Positions 693-44,610 of a DNA stretch of 46,474 nt are shown piece by piece. Both the position numbers and the translations under genes were made by a program. A model generated the notes under the pieces. That model was given only the letters and a program-made list of their open reading frames with translations. It did not search any database and was not told where the DNA came from. Numbering within the stretch: position 1 is the stretch's first letter; every line of letters begins with the position of its first letter. Source of the DNA: a virus (lineage: Duplodnaviria; Caudoviricetes); IMG/VR virus record IMGVR_UViG_3300017565_000025, positions 1 to 46,474 of that record; one strand, written 5' to 3'.

Positions 693-932
693 GACGCTCA
701 GATCGGTCGGCACGTCGCCATAGCTGCCCAGCACCTCGGCGTCGCCGAACTCGCCCAACGCTGGATCTCCCGTCCGGCCGAATGCGACGGCCCCGACATA
801 CTTGGGGTCACGCGCCAGGGCTTCGGCCCGGCGGATCGCCTGGGTGGGGCTCTGACACTCCGTGGCCTCGGCAGGGGCCGGGCCGTCCTCCGAATCAACG
901 AACGGGAGCGCGACGTAATAGGTGACCGACAT
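687..932 (-). CDS. Small hypothetical protein, probably SOS-regulated
   Basis: GGAGG RBS; natural-looking 81-aa sequence MSVTYYVALPF...GAVAFGRTGDP; LexA box upstream. Confidence 0.75.
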   Translation of the reverse strand: MSVTYYVALPFVDSEDGPAPAEATECQSPTQAIRRAEALARDPKYVGAVAFGRTGDPALGEFGDAEVLGSYGDVPTDLSVL

Positions 933-961
933 GGCGGGCCTCCACTGAGGCTGGGAAGGGA

Positions 962-976
962 GAACGAAATCGGAAC
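962..976. promoter_or_regulatory. LexA (SOS) box in a divergent promoter region
   Basis: GAAC-gaaatcg-GAAC, exact GAAC-N7-GAAC, between the genes starting at 932(-) and 1061(+). Confidence 0.75.
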
Positions 977-1060
977 TTCGTCAAGAGAAAGTGTGATCAG
1001 GCCAAATTCGCGGAACGAATCGCTTCGGCCCAGATTGAGTCCCGTCCGAGGAGTTCTGTG

Positions 1061-1432
1061 ATGCGTTCGTCCCCCTCGATCGTTCCCGGTCATGCCGGCG
1101 AGACGGTCTATCTGGTGCTGGACGATTTCGGCGCCCGCGGCCAGGTCTTCCGGGAGACCGATCCGCAACATGCTGATCTGGAAAGTACCATCGGCGATCT
1201 GATCGCCGGGCAATACAACGACCCCGTGGCCGTCATCGCGTTCAACGCGCTGGAAGGTTGGTCGCGAGACGTGTCCGCAGATATCGCCACAGAGATCCAG
1301 CGACGCGCGGACATGGCATTCGAAGACGTGTCGTCGTCGATTGAGCGCTTCGTGGACCGGCATGTCGGATGGGAGCGCCAGTTGACCCTGCGCCTCCCCC
1401 GCTCACCTCCGCGACTGCGCGTCGTCAGATAG
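1061..1432 (+). CDS. Hypothetical protein of a type I recall from rhizobial genomes
   Basis: GAGGAG RBS at 1048-1053; motifs VYLVLDDFG, FRETD, GQYNDP, AFNALEGWSRDVS. Confidence 0.75.
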   Translation: MRSSPSIVPGHAGETVYLVLDDFGARGQVFRETDPQHADLESTIGDLIAGQYNDPVAVIAFNALEGWSRDVSADIATEIQRRADMAFEDVSSSIERFVDRHVGWERQLTLRLPRSPPRLRVVR

Positions 1433-2150
1433 CCGCGCCACCATCTTCTTTTACACCTTTCGCCACGATCCGGAGGCTGCCGTCCGGCAGCGGCCGTTGC
1501 AGCCGCAGCGCCTCCTCCGCCGGCGCGGTGAGCCATGTCTCGATCTCATCGGGCTCCGTCAAGATCACCGGCATGGCCTTGGGATGGATGGCACCGACCT
1601 CTGCGTTGGGCTCGCAGGTGAGGAAGCCATAGAGGTCCGCGGTGACCTCGCCCTCCCGGATTTTGCGCACACTGGTCCAGTTGCACCACAAGCCGGCAAA
1701 CACCGCGAGCGGCCGCTCCTCGGCGAGCGCGAACCAGATATCGCCGCCGGCCTCCCGATTGAGCTCACTGAAGGACGTGAACGGCACCACGCACCGGTGC
1801 TCCACGCCCAGCCAGCGGGTCCAATGGCGGGATTTGACGTTGCGGATGTTGGTGGTGCCGCTGTCCGGCTCCTGCTTGACCAGCTTGGGGAGATCGACCT
1901 CTTGCCCTTTGGCCCGGAGCTTGTCCGCCCGGCGCATCGTGGCTTGGTAGAGCGCTTGGGCCGAAGACGGCATGCCCCAGCGGGCCATGGTCAGCTCGCG
2001 CGCACCGTCAGGGGCGTTGCGGACGATGGGGGCCGCGTAGTCCGGAAAGATGCCCGGCTGGGGCGGCAGGTTGCCCGTGGTGTCCCGCATGGCGCGGGTC
2101 AGCGCAACGATGGCGGCTTGCCCCTTGGTGAGGGAGTAGAGGTTGCACAT
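1425..2150 (-). CDS. SOS response-associated peptidase (SRAP/YedK/HMCES family; abasic-site processing)
   Basis: N-terminal catalytic Cys2 (MCNLY), ARWGMP, conserved Glu (FSE), IHPKAMPVIL. Confidence 0.92.
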   Translation of the reverse strand: MCNLYSLTKGQAAIVALTRAMRDTTGNLPPQPGIFPDYAAPIVRNAPDGARELTMARWGMPSSAQALYQATMRRADKLRAKGQEVDLPKLVKQEPDSGTTNIRNVKSRHWTRWLGVEHRCVVPFTSFSELNREAGGDIWFALAEERPLAVFAGLWCNWTSVRKIREGEVTADLYGFLTCEPNAEVGAIHPKAMPVILTEPDEIETWLTAPAEEALRLQRPLPDGSLRIVAKGVKEDGGAAI

Positions 2151-2941: not shown

Positions 2942-2989
2942 TGTGACAGGAGGTTTGCTGTGGGCAGGCGTTTAGTATGCACGGGCTCC

Positions 2990-3029
2990 AAACAAAAAAA
3001 AGCCCCGCCACCCGTAAAGGTGGCGGGGC
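2990..3029 (-). terminator. Rho-independent terminator ending the late/lysis operon
   Basis: GCCCCGCCACC-loop-GGTGGCGGGGC (11-bp stem) followed by T8 on the minus strand. Confidence 0.9.
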
Positions 3030-3083
3030 AAGTCTGGGAGAAAACGCCCAGAGGGCTTCGAGCGGCGGGCGGGCCCGCCGAAC

Positions 3084-32224: not shown

Positions 32225-32661
32225 CAGAAGTCCCCCGGAGCGACTTGGGCGCAGGGAATGCCCCGCGCGCGCCAAAGCCGAACGCATCGCGCTCGATCCT
32301 CAAAGGCCATGATCGGCCGATATCCTGCTGCGAGCACCTCGTCCAGAAGTTCGCCCTTCACGATGTCGTCGTCGCGGTGGTCGCCGAACCGCCGCATGAA
32401 CAGAGCATTGCCACCGAGGCCATGGCGTGAAAGCCATTCGCGAGTGGAGCCCCGAACGTGGTCTGAGCGGCCTGTCACGAACACCAGTTGAGCGTGCGCG
32501 CGGAGGATTTTCGCCAACCCCACGATATGCTCGAACGGCTTGTCGAGATGAATCTCCCCGTACCAGCCGTCCCAGTTCTTGGGCTGCTGCTGAAGGTGGT
32601 GGACCCGGTGGGTGCCGTCGGCGAGGGTGCCATCTATGTCAAACAAGTAGCAGGGTGTCAT
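32224..32661 (-). CDS. HAD-family phosphatase (T4 PseT/PNKP 3'-phosphatase-like)
   Basis: FDIDGTLA, FVTGRS, LFMR..DHRDDDIVK, FEDR, WRARGIPCAQV. Confidence 0.85.
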   Translation of the reverse strand: MTPCYLFDIDGTLADGTHRVHHLQQQPKNWDGWYGEIHLDKPFEHIVGLAKILRAHAQLVFVTGRSDHVRGSTREWLSRHGLGGNALFMRRFGDHRDDDIVKGELLDEVLAAGYRPIMAFEDRARCVRLWRARGIPCAQVAPGDF

Positions 32662-34007
32662 ATCTCCTCGAACCTCATGGTGGCGCCCTCAAAGCGCATT
32701 TCGCACTGCTCGAATGTCTTCTGGCGGCGGTGCTTGAGGACAATGGCCTCGGCCATTCCTGCCGCCTGCCGCATTTTTGCAGCCCAGTTGTCGCTCGCCT
32801 CCGCGCCGGCGCGCTCGTCCGGCTTGTTCCGGCGCATCCAGTTGATTTTCTGCCAGAGCCCCAGGACCCAGTCGGCATCGCGCTCGATGGACGGGGCGTC
32901 CGCATCAAGAATGCCGGGGACCGGATCGGGATTCCTTTGCGCTCCCCTGGTGCGTTGGGCGAGCACGATGGTGGGAACGTCGAGGGAAAGGGCGAGGCGC
33001 TTCAGGTCCGCCGTCAGTTCAGCCATGCGGTCGAAGCGGTTGGCGTGCTTCCCCACGGCTTGAATCTTGTCGAGCTGGTCCACGATCAGTAGCCCCAGCC
33101 CTCGGGTGCGCTTCATCTGGAGCGCCTGCACGCCGATTTCCCGGACTGTCACCTGCGGCGCGGCGACGACGTGGAAGGGCACCGTGTTGTACTGGCGCTC
33201 CACTTCCAGCAGTCGCTCCCGGTCAAAGGCGGTGAAAGCCCCCTCGTGGATCTGCCTGACGGTGATCTCGGAGAGGTTCGCCAGTTCGCGGGCGCCCATC
33301 TGCTCCCCGCTCATTTCCAACTGGACATAGAGGACGGGCCGGCCGCTGATGGCGGCGTGCATCCCGATCTGAGCAGCAAGGGCGGATTTTCCGTCGCCCT
33401 GCGCCGCAATGATGAAGCCGAGATCGCCGCCGGATATCACCCCGAGGATTTCGTCCAGCGAAGACAGGCCGGTGGTCAGATGGGACACCACGCCGCCGGA
33501 CTGCGCCGTTGTGGCCTGGCGGAGCGCCTTCCCCATCAACTCTCCGATAGGCACCGGGCGAAGCGGAGACGCGGTTGCCGCGATCCCCTGAAGCCGCTGG
33601 GATATCTCCCCGATGAGGTCGTCGGCCAACCGTTGACCGGCACGAGCCTCCTTGTCTGCCCACTGGAGAAGACGGCGCAAGCGGTTGTTCGAGGCATTCT
33701 CCGCGATGAAATCCGCGTAATCCGTGGCGGAGCCGGCTTCCATGGCGTTCGCATGGAGCGCTTGGAGGATGGCGTCGGTGGGCCCGACGTCGTCGTACTC
33801 CTTGTTCAGACGCCCCTTAAGCGCCGCCATGGTCGGCTGGCCGTTCAGGACCTCCGCCACCTCACGCATGGCGCTGAAGATGTCCCGGTGGTGCTGCACC
33901 GTGAACATGTCGGCCGTGACGATATTGTTGATCTGCCAGAATGTGTTCGGGGACCGCAGCAGGCAGCCGAGGAACATCTGCTCGTTGATGACGATGTCGC
34001 GGCTCAT
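32658..34007 (-). CDS. dnaB: DnaB-like replicative helicase
   Basis: TGLSSLDEILG, Walker A AQGDGKS, LEMS, IVDQLD, LAQ, IERDADWV; start MSRDIV is ATGA-coupled. Confidence 0.9.
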   Translation of the reverse strand: MSRDIVINEQMFLGCLLRSPNTFWQINNIVTADMFTVQHHRDIFSAMREVAEVLNGQPTMAALKGRLNKEYDDVGPTDAILQALHANAMEAGSATDYADFIAENASNNRLRRLLQWADKEARAGQRLADDLIGEISQRLQGIAATASPLRPVPIGELMGKALRQATTAQSGGVVSHLTTGLSSLDEILGVISGGDLGFIIAAQGDGKSALAAQIGMHAAISGRPVLYVQLEMSGEQMGARELANLSEITVRQIHEGAFTAFDRERLLEVERQYNTVPFHVVAAPQVTVREIGVQALQMKRTRGLGLLIVDQLDKIQAVGKHANRFDRMAELTADLKRLALSLDVPTIVLAQRTRGAQRNPDPVPGILDADAPSIERDADWVLGLWQKINWMRRNKPDERAGAEASDNWAAKMRQAAGMAEAIVLKHRRQKTFEQCEMRFEGATMRFEEI

Positions 34008-35065
34008 ACCGGCTCCAATTGGCTGGCGTTCCATAAGTCCAAGTAATCGGTGCCAGCGACCGGCTCGGCCGCGGTGATGCACTTGATCCGTGCCTGCATC
34101 ATCCGGGCTTGGAGCGCCTGCGCGGCCTTCCGGCCCGGAGGACAGGCGACGGGGACGTAATCCTCGCCCTGCTTCCGAATGCTGCGGTCTCCGTCCGGGA
34201 AGATCGTGATCTTGCCGACGCCAAGCGGCGGCTCGAACCCGGCCATGCCGCTGGTGGAGAGCGCCGCCCAAACCGGATAGCGCCGGCCGATCAGGCACCA
34301 CGCTCCCAAGGCCGTCTCAACGCCCTCGGCAATGCCGATATGATCCCCGCCGCCTCCGATCCGCACCGCGCCGCCAGATGCAGGCCCGAGTCCGAGCTTC
34401 GGGTTTGGAACGTCGGCCTTGGACCGACCGTCCGCCGAGAGATAGATTCGCCAGATCGCGGCGAACTCGCCTTCGAGATCGAGCACCTTGCAGACCAGCA
34501 CCGGGAGGACCGGGCCACGGAATCCATATTCGAGGTGGGTGAAGCGGAAGCAGTCCGGCCAGCCATCGTCGGGCGTCGGGATTCCGCGGGCGTTCAGGTA
34601 GACCTCGGCCAGCGTTCCGGCGATGGGCTTGGCACCGCGCCAGAACCCAGCCGCCTTTTCCTGCTGGCGCGTCTCGTCGGCCTCGTCCTGCTCCTCACGA
34701 GCCCGCTGGGCGGCTTCGTTCTGCCGCCTCCTCCGCTCCCTTGCTTGCTTCTCGGCATCGCTCAGGGGCTTCGCCTCGGCTCCTGGGGGCGGTTCACCGG
34801 TGAGGGTTTGGACAGCCTCCATGAAGGACACGCCGTCCAGATGCTCGACCATCTTGATGACGTCGCCGCCAACGGAGCCACGGCAGTTGAATATTTGCTT
34901 CACCACGTTGATGCTGAAGCGATCTCGCCCAGCGCAATGGACGCAAGGCCCGAAGTATTCCCGGCCGGCGCGCTTCAGTTGCGCCCCGCGCGCCACGGCG
35001 GCATCGAGGATGCTCACCTCCCGCGCGCGCTGCACCCATTGCTCGAACTCGGGGGAGCGGGTCAT
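34004..35065 (-). CDS. DNA primase (Zn finger + Toprim)
   Basis: GPCVHCAGRDRF...FNCRG zinc finger; YLNARGI; IAEGVET and FPDGD Toprim motifs. Confidence 0.88.
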   Translation of the reverse strand: MTRSPEFEQWVQRAREVSILDAAVARGAQLKRAGREYFGPCVHCAGRDRFSINVVKQIFNCRGSVGGDVIKMVEHLDGVSFMEAVQTLTGEPPPGAEAKPLSDAEKQARERRRRQNEAAQRAREEQDEADETRQQEKAAGFWRGAKPIAGTLAEVYLNARGIPTPDDGWPDCFRFTHLEYGFRGPVLPVLVCKVLDLEGEFAAIWRIYLSADGRSKADVPNPKLGLGPASGGAVRIGGGGDHIGIAEGVETALGAWCLIGRRYPVWAALSTSGMAGFEPPLGVGKITIFPDGDRSIRKQGEDYVPVACPPGRKAAQALQARMMQARIKCITAAEPVAGTDYLDLWNASQLEPV

Positions 35066-35271
35066 GGTGCTTCCCGCCAGAACACATAGGCCACGCCGGT
35101 GGGAATCGGCCGAGACGCTCGCTTGATCACGCCTTCGTCCACCAGCCGCCGGAGTACGGCGCCGACGCTGGATTCCGCCCACACGCCGTATCGCTTCCAT
35201 ATCTGCCGCGAGGTCTCGGCATTCGCCTCACCGACCGGGACAAAGCGGAGAACGTCGTCAATCATCGTCAT
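35062..35271 (-). CDS. Small winged-helix-like protein
   Basis: SSVGAVLRRLVDEGVI; ATGA overlaps on both sides. Confidence 0.55.
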   Translation of the reverse strand: MTMIDDVLRFVPVGEANAETSRQIWKRYGVWAESSVGAVLRRLVDEGVIKRASRPIPTGVAYVFWREAP

Positions 35272-37192: not shown

Positions 37193-37338
37193 TCCAGCAT
37201 CTCCCGCAGGAGTTCGTTGGCGGCCGTGCTCTCGTCGATGCCGTGTGCCCGGGCATATTCCTTGACGAGCCGCATCACGCCCTCGCTTAGCGTGACGGTT
37301 CGATCAGCGTCCTTGGGTGCAAACACGCCGCCGGTCAT
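37183..37338 (-). CDS. 51-aa ribbon-helix-helix-like protein; not in the ORF track
   Basis: MTGGVFAPKDADRTVTLSEGVMRLVKEYARAHGIDESTAANELLREMLECR*; ATGA-coupled to gcrA. Confidence 0.6.
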   Translation of the reverse strand: MTGGVFAPKDADRTVTLSEGVMRLVKEYARAHGIDESTAANELLREMLECR

Positions 37339-37877
37339 CGGAACGCCCTCACCTCGGGCTTGCTGCGCTCCATGGCGCGGCGGAGGGCCTGCTCTGCCCG
37401 GCTGGGCGGCTTTGGAGCGACGCGGTACGCGTTGGCCTCACAGGACGGGCAATAGGACTTGCCGGGCTTCGTTGGCTGGCCGCAGAAGAAGAACGGGCCG
37501 TCTCCTTCCGGAAAGCGGCACGTCCTCGGTTCCAGGTCCGCGAATGTCAGGCGGAGCGACTTCGCCGGTGCCCGCACCACCGGCGGCTTGGCACCCTTCG
37601 GCATCGGAGCCGCCTTGGGCTTCCCGATGACGGTGAGGATCGCTGGCGCCGCCTTGGGCTTCCGGTTGCGGTTCCGCTGCTGATACGCCCCGCCGCCCTT
37701 GTTCAGATTCTCTCTCGGCGCGGTGCGGCGCAGGCCCAGACGGTTGATCTTGCCGATGATGGAGTTGCGCGTAGTGCCGATCTCTGTCGCGATCTGGCTG
37801 CCGGTGGCACCTTCCGACCAACGGCGCTTCACCAGATCGACCCGCTCCTCGGTCCACTCAATCTGAGAGATCGGCAT
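37335..37877 (-). CDS. gcrA: GcrA-family cell-cycle regulator
   Basis: WTEERVDLVKRRWSEG...SQIA...TRNSIIGKINRLGL; CRFPEGD..FFFCG...YC. Confidence 0.9.
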   Translation of the reverse strand: MPISQIEWTEERVDLVKRRWSEGATGSQIATEIGTTRNSIIGKINRLGLRRTAPRENLNKGGGAYQQRNRNRKPKAAPAILTVIGKPKAAPMPKGAKPPVVRAPAKSLRLTFADLEPRTCRFPEGDGPFFFCGQPTKPGKSYCPSCEANAYRVAPKPPSRAEQALRRAMERSKPEVRAFR

Positions 37878-38756: not shown

Positions 38757-39491
38757 ATGAGCAACCTTGATCCAGTGCGCGCGACCATCCTCGCTGAGTC
38801 CGAGCGACAAGGTATTTCGCTGGCCGAAATATCCAAAGCGGCGGGCATGAACCACGCCTACATCCACCAGTTTATCCACCGAGGCACGCCGGAAGCGCTG
38901 TCCGAGAAGGTCCGCCGGGTTGTTGCGAAGAAGCTCAAGATTCCTGAGGACCGACTCATCATCAGCGACCCGCGGGTGGTTCCGCTCGGCGAAGAATTTT
39001 CTGAGGACCCGGACCCGGATCGCCCGCTGACCGAGGACGAGCGCCCCTTCCCCGACGCCTTGCCGCAGTTCGTCGGACGCATGGGTGGTGGCTCCACCGG
39101 GGCCGTGGTGACCTTCGACGTCGGCGACATGCAAGCCCGCGAGGAGGTCTACGATTGGTGGCGTGTCCCGCCAGCCGTGCTGCGCAACGTGGCCATGTCC
39201 GAAAGCGGCCGAACCGCTGCCTTCCCGATGAATGGCGACAGCATGGAGCCCACAATCCAGCGGACCGATATCGTGTTTATCGACACCGGCCGCCAGCAGA
39301 TCGAGCCTGACGGAATTTGGGCCATCGACTATGGGCTGGGTCGGACGCTGAAGCGAGTGGCGGTGAAGCGGACAGAACACGGCATCCGCTACGTCATCAA
39401 GTCCGACAACGAACGATACAAGGACGAAGAGTACTCGCCAGAGGAAGTGACGATCTTCGGCCGGTACGTCGGGCGGTTTTCGGTGTTCTGA
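38757..39491 (+). CDS. cI: CI-like repressor (HTH + S24 peptidase)
   Basis: SLAEISKAAGMNHAYIHQFI HTH; GDSMEPT (Ser) and LKRV (Lys) catalytic dyad. Confidence 0.92.
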   Translation: MSNLDPVRATILAESERQGISLAEISKAAGMNHAYIHQFIHRGTPEALSEKVRRVVAKKLKIPEDRLIISDPRVVPLGEEFSEDPDPDRPLTEDERPFPDALPQFVGRMGGGSTGAVVTFDVGDMQAREEVYDWWRVPPAVLRNVAMSESGRTAAFPMNGDSMEPTIQRTDIVFIDTGRQQIEPDGIWAIDYGLGRTLKRVAVKRTEHGIRYVIKSDNERYKDEEYSPEEVTIFGRYVGRFSVF

Positions 39492-40656: not shown

Positions 40657-41181
40657 TTATTGTGTTTCGTACGCCCGCGAAAAGACGATGCTTGCGCGCT
40701 TGACAACCATCAGCAGCGTCAAAAAGAAATGAATGTATATGGCGAAGGCCGCCACCGATACAGCTGCACCTTTCAAATCCATCACGTATGCGGCCAAGAA
40801 CATGGTAACGAAACAGACGGACAGAAGAATCAGATAGGACACATTATCGTTCAGGTCCTTCATCAAGCCGTTTCGAGCTTTACTGATTTCAGTATAGCGC
40901 CGCTTTAGTCGGCCGTCCTCTGGCTCCGAGAGAGGCCGAAGCGACACGTTGTAGAGCGCCACCTGAACGCTTAGCAAAAGGGCGGCGAAGATTGAAAAAG
41001 CCGTGATTGATTGTCCAAAAGCGTCCTTACCAACGACGCCCCCAACCCAATAGAATGCGAGCCCAGAAAGAACAGGGATCCCACAAAACACAGCAACATC
41101 GGACCACAGAAATCTTCCACGGTCGTCACGCAGCGTTTGGAAATGGGCCGCGAAGATGCAGGCAATATTGACCTTTTGCAT
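40657..41181 (-). CDS. Four-TM membrane protein (candidate RexB-like effector)
   Basis: Four hydrophobic helices; 2 bp downstream of its partner gene; AT-richer. Confidence 0.75.
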   Translation of the reverse strand: MQKVNIACIFAAHFQTLRDDRGRFLWSDVAVFCGIPVLSGLAFYWVGGVVGKDAFGQSITAFSIFAALLLSVQVALYNVSLRPLSEPEDGRLKRRYTEISKARNGLMKDLNDNVSYLILLSVCFVTMFLAAYVMDLKGAAVSVAAFAIYIHFFLTLLMVVKRASIVFSRAYETQ

Positions 41182-41183
41182 CG

Positions 41184-42074
41184 TCAGTTCATCCCATGGA
41201 AGAACTCGTCCATCAACCCATCGACCAAAGAAACCATACTATCCCAGGTCGGGTGTCCGTTATCGGCTCGAACAACATCGTCGGTTACATCGATTAGGCC
41301 GACCTCAGAGCCTTGTCCATAGACACCAACTGACCGCTGCTTTCTACCGATCCGGACTTTCGCCCTGACATTCTCGAATTGCTGATCGGCAAACGTAATT
41401 AGGCCGCTCGGATCGTCGAAACGTTTTGTCAATTCGCCGTATGTTGAAATCATACCACTTCTCCGCCGGGCGCGAAGCGTCACTTCGTAATCAACATCCT
41501 CTATACTATGACCTAAGAGGTACTTGTCCGCCTTGTCGGCTGAGACCATGGGCCTCCAGAAAGTCACCGTTTTCACAGGCGCGTCGTCCATTAAAGCAGC
41601 TGCTGGCGTCACAATGCTGAATGACAAAGAATATTCGGGGTGTGCCTCTGAAAATTCTGCAATCATCGCTGGCCGAACGTGGGTGATGCAGGATCGGCCG
41701 GTAAATGATTGGAACGCGATGAGGGCAATTTGTGAGCCTTCTGGCGACCAGACTTGGAAATACAGCGGAATAATTTCTACGTCGGTCGCCTTTCTTTGAA
41801 ACTGCTCTTGTCTGGTGTTCACGTCAGTAAAGGTACTTTCAAATCCGTGCGTGCCATACTTTATGTAACCGTGGACGGCTCGGGTGCCTTCGTAAGGCCG
41901 CGGATCCATGTACCAAGTTCTCGTTGCTTCAGCGACGACTATTGGGTCAGTTTTCCGCGCCATAAAGTCCGCAAAAAACTCGTATAGGTCAGGCACAGGG
42001 CTTTTAACTTCAGACCCGTCTTGCCGGATGTGCATAGCGATCCGATAAAATCTCAACCCAATGGCGAACGACAT
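41184..42074 (-). CDS. Soluble 296-aa protein (candidate RexA/DUF4747-like sensor)
   Basis: GYIKYGTHG, IPLYF, FQSF, NGHPT; purine-rich RBS region; AT-richer. Confidence 0.7.
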   Translation of the reverse strand: MSFAIGLRFYRIAMHIRQDGSEVKSPVPDLYEFFADFMARKTDPIVVAEATRTWYMDPRPYEGTRAVHGYIKYGTHGFESTFTDVNTRQEQFQRKATDVEIIPLYFQVWSPEGSQIALIAFQSFTGRSCITHVRPAMIAEFSEAHPEYSLSFSIVTPAAALMDDAPVKTVTFWRPMVSADKADKYLLGHSIEDVDYEVTLRARRRSGMISTYGELTKRFDDPSGLITFADQQFENVRAKVRIGRKQRSVGVYGQGSEVGLIDVTDDVVRADNGHPTWDSMVSLVDGLMDEFFHGMN

Positions 42075-42185
42075 TCACCCTGCCCTCCCTCAAGACCTTT
42101 CCCCTGGAGGGCAGCGAAATGTGCAAATCGATTCGCGTCAATTGGCAGTTGCATCCTGGGCACAGGTGGAGCGGCATCGCTTTTT

Positions 42186-42650
42186 GGCAGCGTGTGCTGC
42201 CGCTAAACCTCCGACTTCAAGCCTTGGGTTTCCCTCTCACTCCCTCTCTGACTCAGTAATGAAGGTGTTTTTGCGCCTCTGATCTCGTGTTCTGACCCTG
42301 TGGTGAGGGCGGTGTTCTGGCATGACCCGACCAATCCCGGGGTCCAGACGCGCTGGAAACCCAGGTTGGTGGTCGGGCCGATGAGCCTTTGACCCTGCGG
42401 AGCCGGGCGGCGCACCGGGTCATGGCGGAGGACGTCGCCACAACAGCATCCAGCTACTTCACAGCCGATTCGCCTCGGCCGGCGCGCCCTGGGCTTCTGG
42501 ACCTATCCCTGCCCTTCCGGCGTATGCGCGCATCCCTGCACCGGTCTCGCCTGTCCGCGGCACGTTCCTGAAATCCGAACGCGGGAGGCAAAGCCGTCTC
42601 CGAGAGCCCGACGCATTCGCGCCTCGGCCACGGTGACGGCACCTCCGCGA
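42186..42650. ncRNA. Putative large structured non-coding element (strand uncertain, possibly minus)
   Basis: No credible ORF; several 8-9 bp perfect long-range complementarities. Confidence 0.4.
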
Positions 42651-42664
42651 ATAAATCTGCTGCG

Positions 42665-42718
42665 TAGGAAAGTCCATAGGTTTTTTCCTATTGACACCTG
42701 TCGGATATTTCCTATTAT
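42665..42718 (+). promoter_or_regulatory. Early promoter (PL-like) with three operators
   Basis: TTGACA(42691)-16-TATTAT(42713); TAGG-N6-CCTA-like sites at 42665-78, 42677-90, 42701-14. Confidence 0.85.
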
Positions 42719-42745
42719 CGCTCCTACACCACGGGAGACGATCCT

Positions 42746-43186
42746 ATGCGCCCCAGCCCCTTCCCCCTGAACATGCCCGAGGCCGAGCGCCGGAAGGTGT
42801 CCCAGCAGCGGTATGCGGTCCTCATGGGCCAGATCGGCACGCTGGCAAGCGCCATCGGCTGGGACGCCGCCTATGTGGAGCCGCACCAACGGGCGCTGGC
42901 TGAGTGCATCCAGAAGCTGGCTGGCTTGGACCTGCACCGGATCGGTCTCCCCGCCGAGGCTTGGGAAGGCGAGAAGATCACCTCGAACCTCTACGGGATT
43001 GCGGTGGCGGTTGATCCGCTGATCAAGGCCATCGGTGACGAGGCCGCCAGCAGCTTCAACATTCCGGCCGGCGAGCTGGCGCGCAATTTCGAGGATCAGG
43101 TTCTCGGCGCTCTCGACGGCAATGCCACCCACACCGTTGTGGAAGCCGCGAAGGCTTTCGTGGCGCAAGGCCGGGAGGTCGCGTGA
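42746..43186 (+). CDS. First early gene, hypothetical
   Basis: GGGAGA RBS; directly after the PL-like promoter. Confidence 0.75.
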   Translation: MRPSPFPLNMPEAERRKVSQQRYAVLMGQIGTLASAIGWDAAYVEPHQRALAECIQKLAGLDLHRIGLPAEAWEGEKITSNLYGIAVAVDPLIKAIGDEAASSFNIPAGELARNFEDQVLGALDGNATHTVVEAAKAFVAQGREVA

Positions 43187-43699: not shown

Positions 43700-44610
43700 G
43701 CATCACCGTGAAGCAATGGGACGGGAAGCCGATCAGCGAGCCGGGGATATATGCCGGCGTGCCGATGTCGGCCTACCACGGCGCTCGCCTCTGCAATGCG
43801 CCCAGCGTGTCGTCATCGGGGCTACGGACGATCATGTCCAAGAGCCCGGCGCATTACTGGTGCGAGAGCCCATACAACCCGGATCGGATCGACCAGAAGG
43901 AAGTCGATGCGCTGGTGCTGGGCCGGGCCGCGCATCACCTGCTGCTAGGCGAGGACGACTTCTCAACGCAGTTCATCACCCGGCCGGACAAGTTCGATAG
44001 CTGGCGCACGGCCGCGGCGAAGGACTGGAAGACCGAGCAGGAAGCGCAGGGCCGCACGGTGCTGCTGCCGTCGCAGCTTGAGCAGATCCGGGGCATGGCG
44101 CGCGGCCTTGCCGGCAATGCTCTGGTGCGCGCCGGAATCCTCAACGGCGAGATCGAGCAGACCATCACATGGCGCTGCAAGGACACCGGGGTCTGGCTCA
44201 AGTCTCGGCCGGACGCGATCCCGAATGACTCGGGCGACTTCGCCGACCTCAAAACCACCACCAGCGTTCAGACCGCGGACCTCGCCCGGACCATCGCGGA
44301 ATACGGCTACCACCAGCAAGCCGCCCTGATCGCCTCTGGCTGGCACGCCCTCACCGGCCGAGACCTTGCCAGCTTCTCGTTCGTCTTCGTGGAGAAGGCT
44401 CCGCCCTACTGCGTCCGCATCGTCACCTTGCGGGACGAGGACCTGGCACGCGGGGAACGGCAGAACATGCTCGCGATCCGCACCTTTGCTCGCTGCATGG
44501 AGACCGGCGAGTGGCCCGGGCCCGGCTCGACCGATGCTGAATACCTCAGTCTTCCCGAGTGGAAGCAGAAGCAGATCGACCACCAGATTGAACAGGCGGA
44601 GGCCGCGTGA
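43696..44610 (+). CDS. RecE/exonuclease VIII-like PD-(D/E)xK nuclease (DUF3799-like)
   Basis: SSSGL..SPAHY, LGRAAH, KSRPD, DLKTT, YGYHQQAA, FVFVEKAPPY. Confidence 0.88.
   Translation: MSITVKQWDGKPISEPGIYAGVPMSAYHGARLCNAPSVSSSGLRTIMSKSPAHYWCESPYNPDRIDQKEVDALVLGRAAHHLLLGEDDFSTQFITRPDKFDSWRTAAAKDWKTEQEAQGRTVLLPSQLEQIRGMARGLAGNALVRAGILNGEIEQTITWRCKDTGVWLKSRPDAIPNDSGDFADLKTTTSVQTADLARTIAEYGYHQQAALIASGWHALTGRDLASFSFVFVEKAPPYCVRIVTLRDEDLARGERQNMLAIRTFARCMETGEWPGPGSTDAEYLSLPEWKQKQIDHQIEQAEAA

Follow-up and report, generated by a model that had tools for sequence, protein, structure and literature searches.

A conserved and probably structured RNA behind the left CI operator of lambdoid prophages

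The GC-rich interval ahead of the early operon of the prophage analysed here contains a module of about 350 nt, conserved beside unrelated repressors, which is very probably a genuine structured RNA. The window, i.e. the whole stretch of DNA that was analysed (46,474 nt), is a lambdoid, contractile-tailed prophage adjoining a tRNA gene. Its gene order runs from helicase and primase (32658-35200, minus strand) through cro, cI and the cargo genes to a gap at 42075-42745, followed by the early operon, in which Pfam DUF3799 and RecT are recognised. At 671 nt this gap is indeed the largest between called genes, the runner-up being 363 nt in a gene list that starts at position 698, and its GC content is 65%. 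The interval from repressor to early-left operon, occupied elsewhere by rexAB or bstA, is a known accessory site according to the available part of PMC7067206. The principal features are:

42288..42641, minus strand: predicted structured ncRNA, family 1, about 350 nt (homologues, covariation)
38757..39491, plus strand: cI-like repressor (Pfam Peptidase_S24 and HTH; PHROG 4), towards which the RNA points
34004..35200, minus strand: primase with CHC2 zinc finger, DUF7146 and Toprim; candidate partner of the RNA, with a tree that matches the RNA families
40657..42074, minus strand: cargo pair, a 296-aa protein and a membrane protein, 210 nt downstream of the RNA on the same strand

The initial annotation had proposed an element of about 450 nt at 42186-42650, forming a possible new structured RNA with long-range, mutually exclusive helices, its minus-strand promoter lying across a CI operator. 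A real element is present, but it is narrower (approximately 42288-42641) and lies on the minus strand. Homologues, covariation and operator geometry uphold the structured RNA and its promoter; the switch is the part left unsupported.

Several other features of the prophage were recorded. A stand-alone acyl carrier protein gene (PF00550; 43448-43699, plus strand) lies in the early-left operon immediately ahead of the exonuclease, and an mmgR/suhB sRNA (2987-3063, minus strand) scoring 55 bits, above its gathering score, is another element within the prophage, on the downstream side of the late genes. The gene at 37335-37877 (minus strand), which we take to be GcrA-like from reading its sequence rather than from a family search, has homologues in the corresponding block of G791, G023 and G1102. 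The starts of cro (38671) and cI (38757) fall 6-7 nt past predicted -10 hexamers, a distance which suggests that both mRNAs are leaderless.

Copies and limits of the module

Among 400 family genomes, one strong homologue of the module was found, in G180 (73% identity over 42290-42595); of the 56 other genomes at E ≤ 0.01, 55 were set aside because their matches spanned no more than 20-46 nt. Pattern scans, in which 2/2, 2/8, 4/72, 1/49, 2/5 and 2/9 matches were true, added copies on L037/L038 and L090. The remaining true matches are identical to known copies or to the window, and the whole collapses to four distinct copies (window, G180, L037 and L090). These constitute family 1, with identities of 73-97%, three of the four being 88-97% alike. 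The window's own genome contains a single copy.

The limits of the module are set by where similarity ends. Within 3.3 kb, only 311 nt can be aligned between the window and G180 and between the window and L037, the flanks being unalignable; G180 and L037 share 309 nt at 97%, and their operators and cargo differ. Short fragments from four other runs fall within 42293-42641, except for 35-nt matches near 42772-42806. One of these fragments follows the module over 42607-42641 and diverges beyond it, an independent marker of the 5' end. All four copies start directly behind OL and run against the direction of the PL operon, and three of them, namely all those with cI on the contig, face cI. The CI repressors of these prophages are 28% identical or unalignable, and the neighbours of the other three copies are unrelated to those of the window. 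Conservation across unrelated repressors suggests a conserved partner.

No homologues were detected in 100 relatives, in 400 genomes of the order, in 301 genomes of one large genus or in 14 congeners of G180, and phage and plasmid collections returned only short, weak matches to the module. The application of model R1 to 150 family genomes gave, besides the window, only G180 above 30 bits, with nine weak matches that were noise-like. A 21-bit match on L159 was rejected, as it lies within a long protein-coding gene. In agreement with the suggestion that the RNA is new, Rfam 15 contained no match over the element in the window, G180, L037 or L090, either at the gathering threshold or at the E-value level, and ARAGORN called no tRNA or tmRNA in the four loci. 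A CC2171-like sRNA is present in G180 about 60 nt past the element (L003:1861-2011, plus strand), with a score of 49 bits where the gathering score is 75. No description of the element was found in the available parts of the literature, and a match within the alignments of the largest viral RNA catalogue (PMC10690425) is possible.

A second family was found in five prophages (G182, G1090, G1102, G117 and G198), together with a GC-rich stretch in G023:

L202:8630-9040, minus strand: family-2 module, about 390 nt (covariation; also on L206, L207, L210 and L211)
L200:10770-11100, plus strand: GC-rich 330-nt stretch of G023 without a long ORF, its position matching families 1 and 2; single copy

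Family 2 is placed between the PL operon and cI, facing cI, in all five prophages. G182 and G1102 have only 396 nt (91%) and one 29-nt match in common within 3.4 kb, and the family covaries, with 7/123 pairs changed on both sides in three copies. The G023 stretch is directly followed by a strong ribosome-binding site and then a 66-codon ORF, and no homologue of it was found in seven congeners. Rfam contained no match for either family 2 or the G023 stretch. A 34-nt family-2 match in G236 was rejected as chance. Families 1 and 2 have only short words in common, and no significant homology links family 1 to the elements of G182 or G023, whose alignment scores were equalled by 26-281 of 300 shuffles; the two families may be remote homologues or analogues.

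Predicted promoter and conserved fold

The motif TAGG-N6-CCTA occurs in three copies in the cro-cI interval and in three at 42665-42714, and these triplets therefore define OR and OL, an assignment made from position. The sites adjoining the module are:

42648..42676, minus strand: predicted RNA promoter, TGGACT (42676-42671), 17 nt, TATTCG (42653-42648); its -35 abuts OL2
42665-42678: OL3-like operator, TAGG-N6-CCTA with 1 mismatch, covering the -35 of the RNA promoter
42677-42690: OL2 operator, perfect TAGG-N6-CCTA
42701-42714: OL1 operator, TAGG-N6-CCTA with 1 mismatch
42691..42718, plus strand: PL-like promoter TTGACA-16-TATTAT with 11/12 consensus matches, driving the early recombination operon

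The TGGACT-17-TATTCG site, described earlier as a weak minus-strand promoter, was located at 42676-42648; a consensus promoter scan did not pick it. Its geometry is PRM-like, with the -35 abutting the second operator, a 17-nt spacer and a -10 beginning 23 nt from OL2, 2 nt closer than in the phage's own PRM-like site (25 nt from OR2). By eye, -10 sites starting with TA can be seen 21-22 nt from the second operator in L037 and L090, and less clearly in G180. In lambda, back-to-back promoters lie around a CI operator, and CI activates PRM. The same arrangement is seen here, except that the back promoter sits at OL and is directed towards cI, and that what follows it is a conserved non-coding module instead of a protein gene. 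Were CI at OL2 to activate as at lambda PRM, the RNA would be expressed in the lysogen; as the OL3-like site covers the -35, CI may instead repress. By analogy, then, the RNA promoter may be under CI control, the sign of which is a prediction.

Substitutions in the module keep a chain of local hairpins, which comprises the following:

42593..42640, minus strand: P1, the 5' hairpin (pair probability 1.00; alignment)
42546..42592, minus strand: P2, a long hairpin with apical stem and 3' bulge (2 pairs changed on both sides)
42517..42544, minus strand: P3, bearing the invariant self-complementary ATGCGCGCAT at 42524-42533 (1 pair changed on both sides)
42462..42514, minus strand: P4, the invariant GGCGCGCC junction and P6 (1 pair changed on both sides, 1 wobble change)
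42323..42441, minus strand: 3' variable domain, with P7/P8, which have a strand in common, and the long hairpin P9 (each copy's own fold)
42293..42310, minus strand: P10, the 3' hairpin (alignment, fragments)

P1 is formed by GCCGTC/GACGGC in the window, where it is longer, and by GCCGCC/GGCGGC in L037 and L090. The self-complementary loop of P3 is a candidate pseudoknot or dimer loop. In the 3' variable domain the sequences diverge and the helices re-form in each copy, P7/P8 being weak in L090. Three copies of the TGACCC repeat noticed earlier were located (42293, 42323 and 42390). The GGGTCA end of P10 co-varies across homologues with a copy at 42390-42395: the repeats at 42390 and 42293 are both GGGTCA in the window, both GGGTAAT in L090 and both GGGGCAG in the fragments of run X8. 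The internal strand able to pair with these repeats stays unchanged across copies. That the repeats change together while this strand is constant suggests an outside partner reading both hairpins.

In the 150-nt core, for which a 37-pair structure was chosen with the alignment in view, four pairs are changed on both sides, a number equalled by 2/500 shuffles, and sliding the partners reduces pairing from 99% to 33-43%. As three copies are so alike, all four double changes stem from one comparison. A less biased test was to fold a single copy alone and apply the 25 substitutions of the other. With the fold of G180 only (span 70), one pair was broken against 5.7 expected (P = 0.003), with three double changes against 0.34 (P = 0.003); with the fold of the window only, three pairs were broken against 6.7 (P = 0.03), with three double changes against 0.57 (P = 0.013). 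At a span of 150 the broken-pair test was non-significant (P = 0.23 and 0.37). On the opposite strand this test was never significant, but double changes score there too.

A strand preference is apparent in all four copies: folding favours the minus over the plus strand by 11-27 kcal/mol with RNA parameters, but by only 2-8 kcal/mol with DNA parameters. Local-span z-scores range from -1.4 to -2.6 on the minus strand and from -0.4 to +0.5 on the plus strand. The global folding z-scores of the module (-0.14 and -0.98) are unremarkable, as are those against shuffles of the whole region first proposed (-0.33 plus, -1.55 minus).

The fold drawn in the initial annotation fares differently. All 14 of its helix arms are present exactly where they were placed, but most of its long-range, mutually exclusive helices are neither favoured nor conserved. 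The region contains four perfect stems of at least 8 bp, compared to 2.0 ± 1.4 in 500 dinucleotide shuffles, of which 13% reach four, and an equal number occurs in 23/99 tiles of that size across the window. The accompanying caution, that high GC makes some pairings likely by chance, was well placed: the stem count in this 65% GC gap is no more than chance. GGTCCAGA/TCTGGACC, CCCAGG/CCTGGG and CATGACCCG/CGGGTCATG have an ensemble pair probability of 0.00 on either strand. That of GGAAACCCA/TGGGTTTCC is 0.94 on the plus strand and 0.24 on the minus strand, and its 42225 arm lies outside the conserved module, as do the CT tract and the 42186 hairpin. Hence the switch as drawn is unsupported, because three long-range helices have zero probability and the fourth uses an arm outside the conserved part. 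Two other proposed helices are part of the conserved fold, namely GCCGTC/GACGGC (pair probability 1.00 on the minus strand) and CCCGACCA/TGGTCGGG (0.72 on the minus strand).

Possible association with the primase

All eight prophages whose contigs reach the replication genes carry the primase, with a distance of 7 to 37 kb between element and primase gene. Prophages with this primase were found in 4/200 family genomes; family 1 is present in none of these, three carry family 2 and the fourth is G023. In the primase tree, the two family-1 phages with the primase group together (54% identity versus 36-47%; support 93), a match between primase and RNA that rests on one informative phage pair. The helicases of this pair do not group (31%, versus 41-42% to family 2), and neither do the RuvC-like genes (24%) or the repressors. 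As to whether homologues track with primase and DnaB, a check proposed earlier, the RNA follows the primase tree in this one pair but not the helicase tree. In family 2, CI and helicase cluster with the RNA as well. The G180 assembly, in which the contig ends at cro, contains no match to this primase at E ≤ 1e-8. As the RNA family tracks the primase tree, a link to replication is still plausible; no other gene was seen to follow the RNA, and the primase is therefore the proposed partner.

Complementarity of the element to its own genome is not in excess (17 matches of at least 11 nt, versus 17.9 ± 4.9 in controls), and no antisense target common to the window, G790, G791 and G180 was found among perfect matches of at least 11 nt. 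An 11-nt complement to cro was rejected, as it is no more than chance would give and falls in P1, which varies between copies. P1/P7 C4 and P4 CI are prophage antisense immunity RNAs. The available part of PMC7067206 likewise ties STnc6030, an ncRNA of prophage BTP1, to immunity or superinfection exclusion. The element would resemble these as a prophage ncRNA possibly tied to immunity or superinfection exclusion, but differs in having no excess of own-genome complementarity, no gene overlap and no Rfam c4 match.

We tentatively favour, as one possibility, that the conserved stretch is a CI-controlled, stand-alone RNA, made from the minus strand and acting in trans, with the primase as its likely target. 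A role in cis is a poor fit: the gene that follows is in many cases convergent (L037, G182, G1090 and G198), and the distance to cI varies between about 250 nt in G023 and about 30 kb in G198. Minus-strand transcription of 42288-42641 from the promoter beside OL2 would give a multi-hairpin ncRNA, and activation of that promoter by CI at OL2, in the manner of PRM, would have it made in the lysogen. The folded RNA would bind the zinc-finger/Toprim primase and keep it idle. An idle primase would in turn damp leaky replication of the prophage and block related phages that have the same primase but another repressor.

Alternative roles and significance

The main rival to a trans-acting RNA is an origin or primer role, which we consider rather unlikely. 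CI would repress the back promoter, and induction would lead to an R-loop at which the phage primase reads the RNA or the displaced strand and loads the helicase. The agreement of RNA family and primase tree, the primase in every reachable prophage and the OL3-like site over the -35 all suit such an origin, as does the fact that no initiator gene was recognised beside the primase and helicase. ColE1 RNA II, to which the element had been likened, is a long structured primer RNA with a G-rich tract for R-loop formation. The element is also a long structured RNA, possibly linked to replication, but no antisense partner was found, Rfam and plasmid sequences gave no match, and the phage encodes its own primase. 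The window copy lacks a ColE1-type tract, its G runs reaching at most 3, compared to 5 in each of the other copies. Against an origin are also the CT tract, being outside the module, the 65% GC content with no conserved AT-rich unwinding stretch, the variable distance to the primase gene, and the skew, which has no extreme at the element and its minimum at 44427. Finally, the strand asymmetry suits RNA over DNA.

It is likewise unlikely that the RNA stands alone with a host protein as partner, or assembles with itself as ROOL and GOLLD do, the primase match then reflecting common phage ancestry. In the available part of bioRxiv 10.1101/2024.12.08.627333, ROOL and GOLLD are large multi-helix prophage ncRNAs of unknown function, some with self-complementary loops, and palindromic kissing loops bridge the chains of OLE and GOLLD. 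Such large structured prophage RNAs are the nearest known kind. The element is similarly a multi-helix prophage ncRNA with a self-complementary loop, and its invariant ATGCGCGCAT loop and GGCGCGCC junction are in keeping with such assembly; that CI and helicase also cluster with the RNA in family 2 is consistent with shared ancestry. However, it is about half the length (about 350 nt versus 600-800 nt or more), far shorter than the 659-nt ROOL and >800-nt GOLLD examples in the same source, and matches no family model. It is fixed behind OL at a CI operator, with no adjoining tRNA islands, and the primase alone tracks with family 1.

Improbable, too, is a put-like antiterminator acting in cis, in which the nascent RNA would let polymerase read through the cargo towards cI for cargo expression or cI antisense. 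HK022 put is a structured RNA of about 70 nt on the PL and PR transcripts. Like put, the element begins right at a predicted early phage promoter, and whenever the contig includes cI it is directed towards that gene; in L037, a hairpin resembling a terminator is found about 270 nt further downstream. However, at about 350 nt it is some five times the size of put and is on the strand opposite PL in all copies, and the convergent genes and the range of distances to cI noted above also speak against such a role.

A still less probable explanation is that there is no functional RNA, the module being a GC-rich junction at which immunity and early modules recombine, and which is conserved by exchanges inside it. 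The abrupt loss of identity on either side, at a module boundary, and the global folding z-scores near zero would be expected of such a junction, but helix-preserving substitutions, strand asymmetry in 4/4 copies and a second, covarying family with a similar pattern would not.

The earlier proposal of a leader or antitoxin RNA for the cargo pair has little to commend it beyond the 210 nt that separate them on the same strand, is contradicted by their distribution and is highly improbable. The pair has 33 homologues at varied accessory sites of prophages, those of the cargo protein being in Tardiphaga, Bradyrhizobium, Rhizobium and relatives, and it matches no Pfam family and nothing in PADLOC. 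Ten homologue loci were taken, two of them truncated, and in none of the eight informative ones (3 kb upstream complete) is the RNA present; nor is the pair found beside the other three copies of the module. A promoter-like motif, TTG..GAATC..TAGC, occurs in 4/8 of the upstream regions and is echoed at 42141 in the window, and the cargo pair appears from these sequences to bring its own promoter. The homologues of the RNA thus show no tracking with the supposed defence pair, which is independent of it. In L037 the cargo gene (909-1955, plus strand) is convergent with the RNA; its 348-aa product resembles a caspase-family peptidase.

Equally remote is a small protein gene, for which the candidate is a 24-codon AUG frame (42533-42459, minus strand) whose start codon, length and stop codon agree between the window and G180 and which is visible in L037 and L090: differences fall 1/6/6 at codon positions 1/2/3, with 7 non-synonymous against 3 synonymous codons, longer frames are all broken by indels, and the overlapping ORFs tested gave no PHROG or Pfam match, so that no conserved protein-coding pattern explains the module.

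For large phage RNAs such as ROOL and GOLLD, structures are available but no function is known. Here there is a fixed address at a CI operator, at least two covarying families and a candidate partner, which makes function directly testable. If the RNA does act on the primase in trans, it would add to the lysis-lysogeny switch a layer of control over replication made of RNA, and would give a prophage a means of excluding phages invisible to its repressor. A broader proposal, which we regard as doubtful, is that, throughout a clade of lambdoid phages of alphaproteobacteria, the primase is paired with a dedicated, co-evolving RNA of 330-400 nt made from the back of OL, which gates the primase or acts as its partner in origin recognition. 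Were this pairing to hold across the clade, the CI switch would control both replication and immunity across repressors through a ribonucleoprotein, rather than through a protein initiator.
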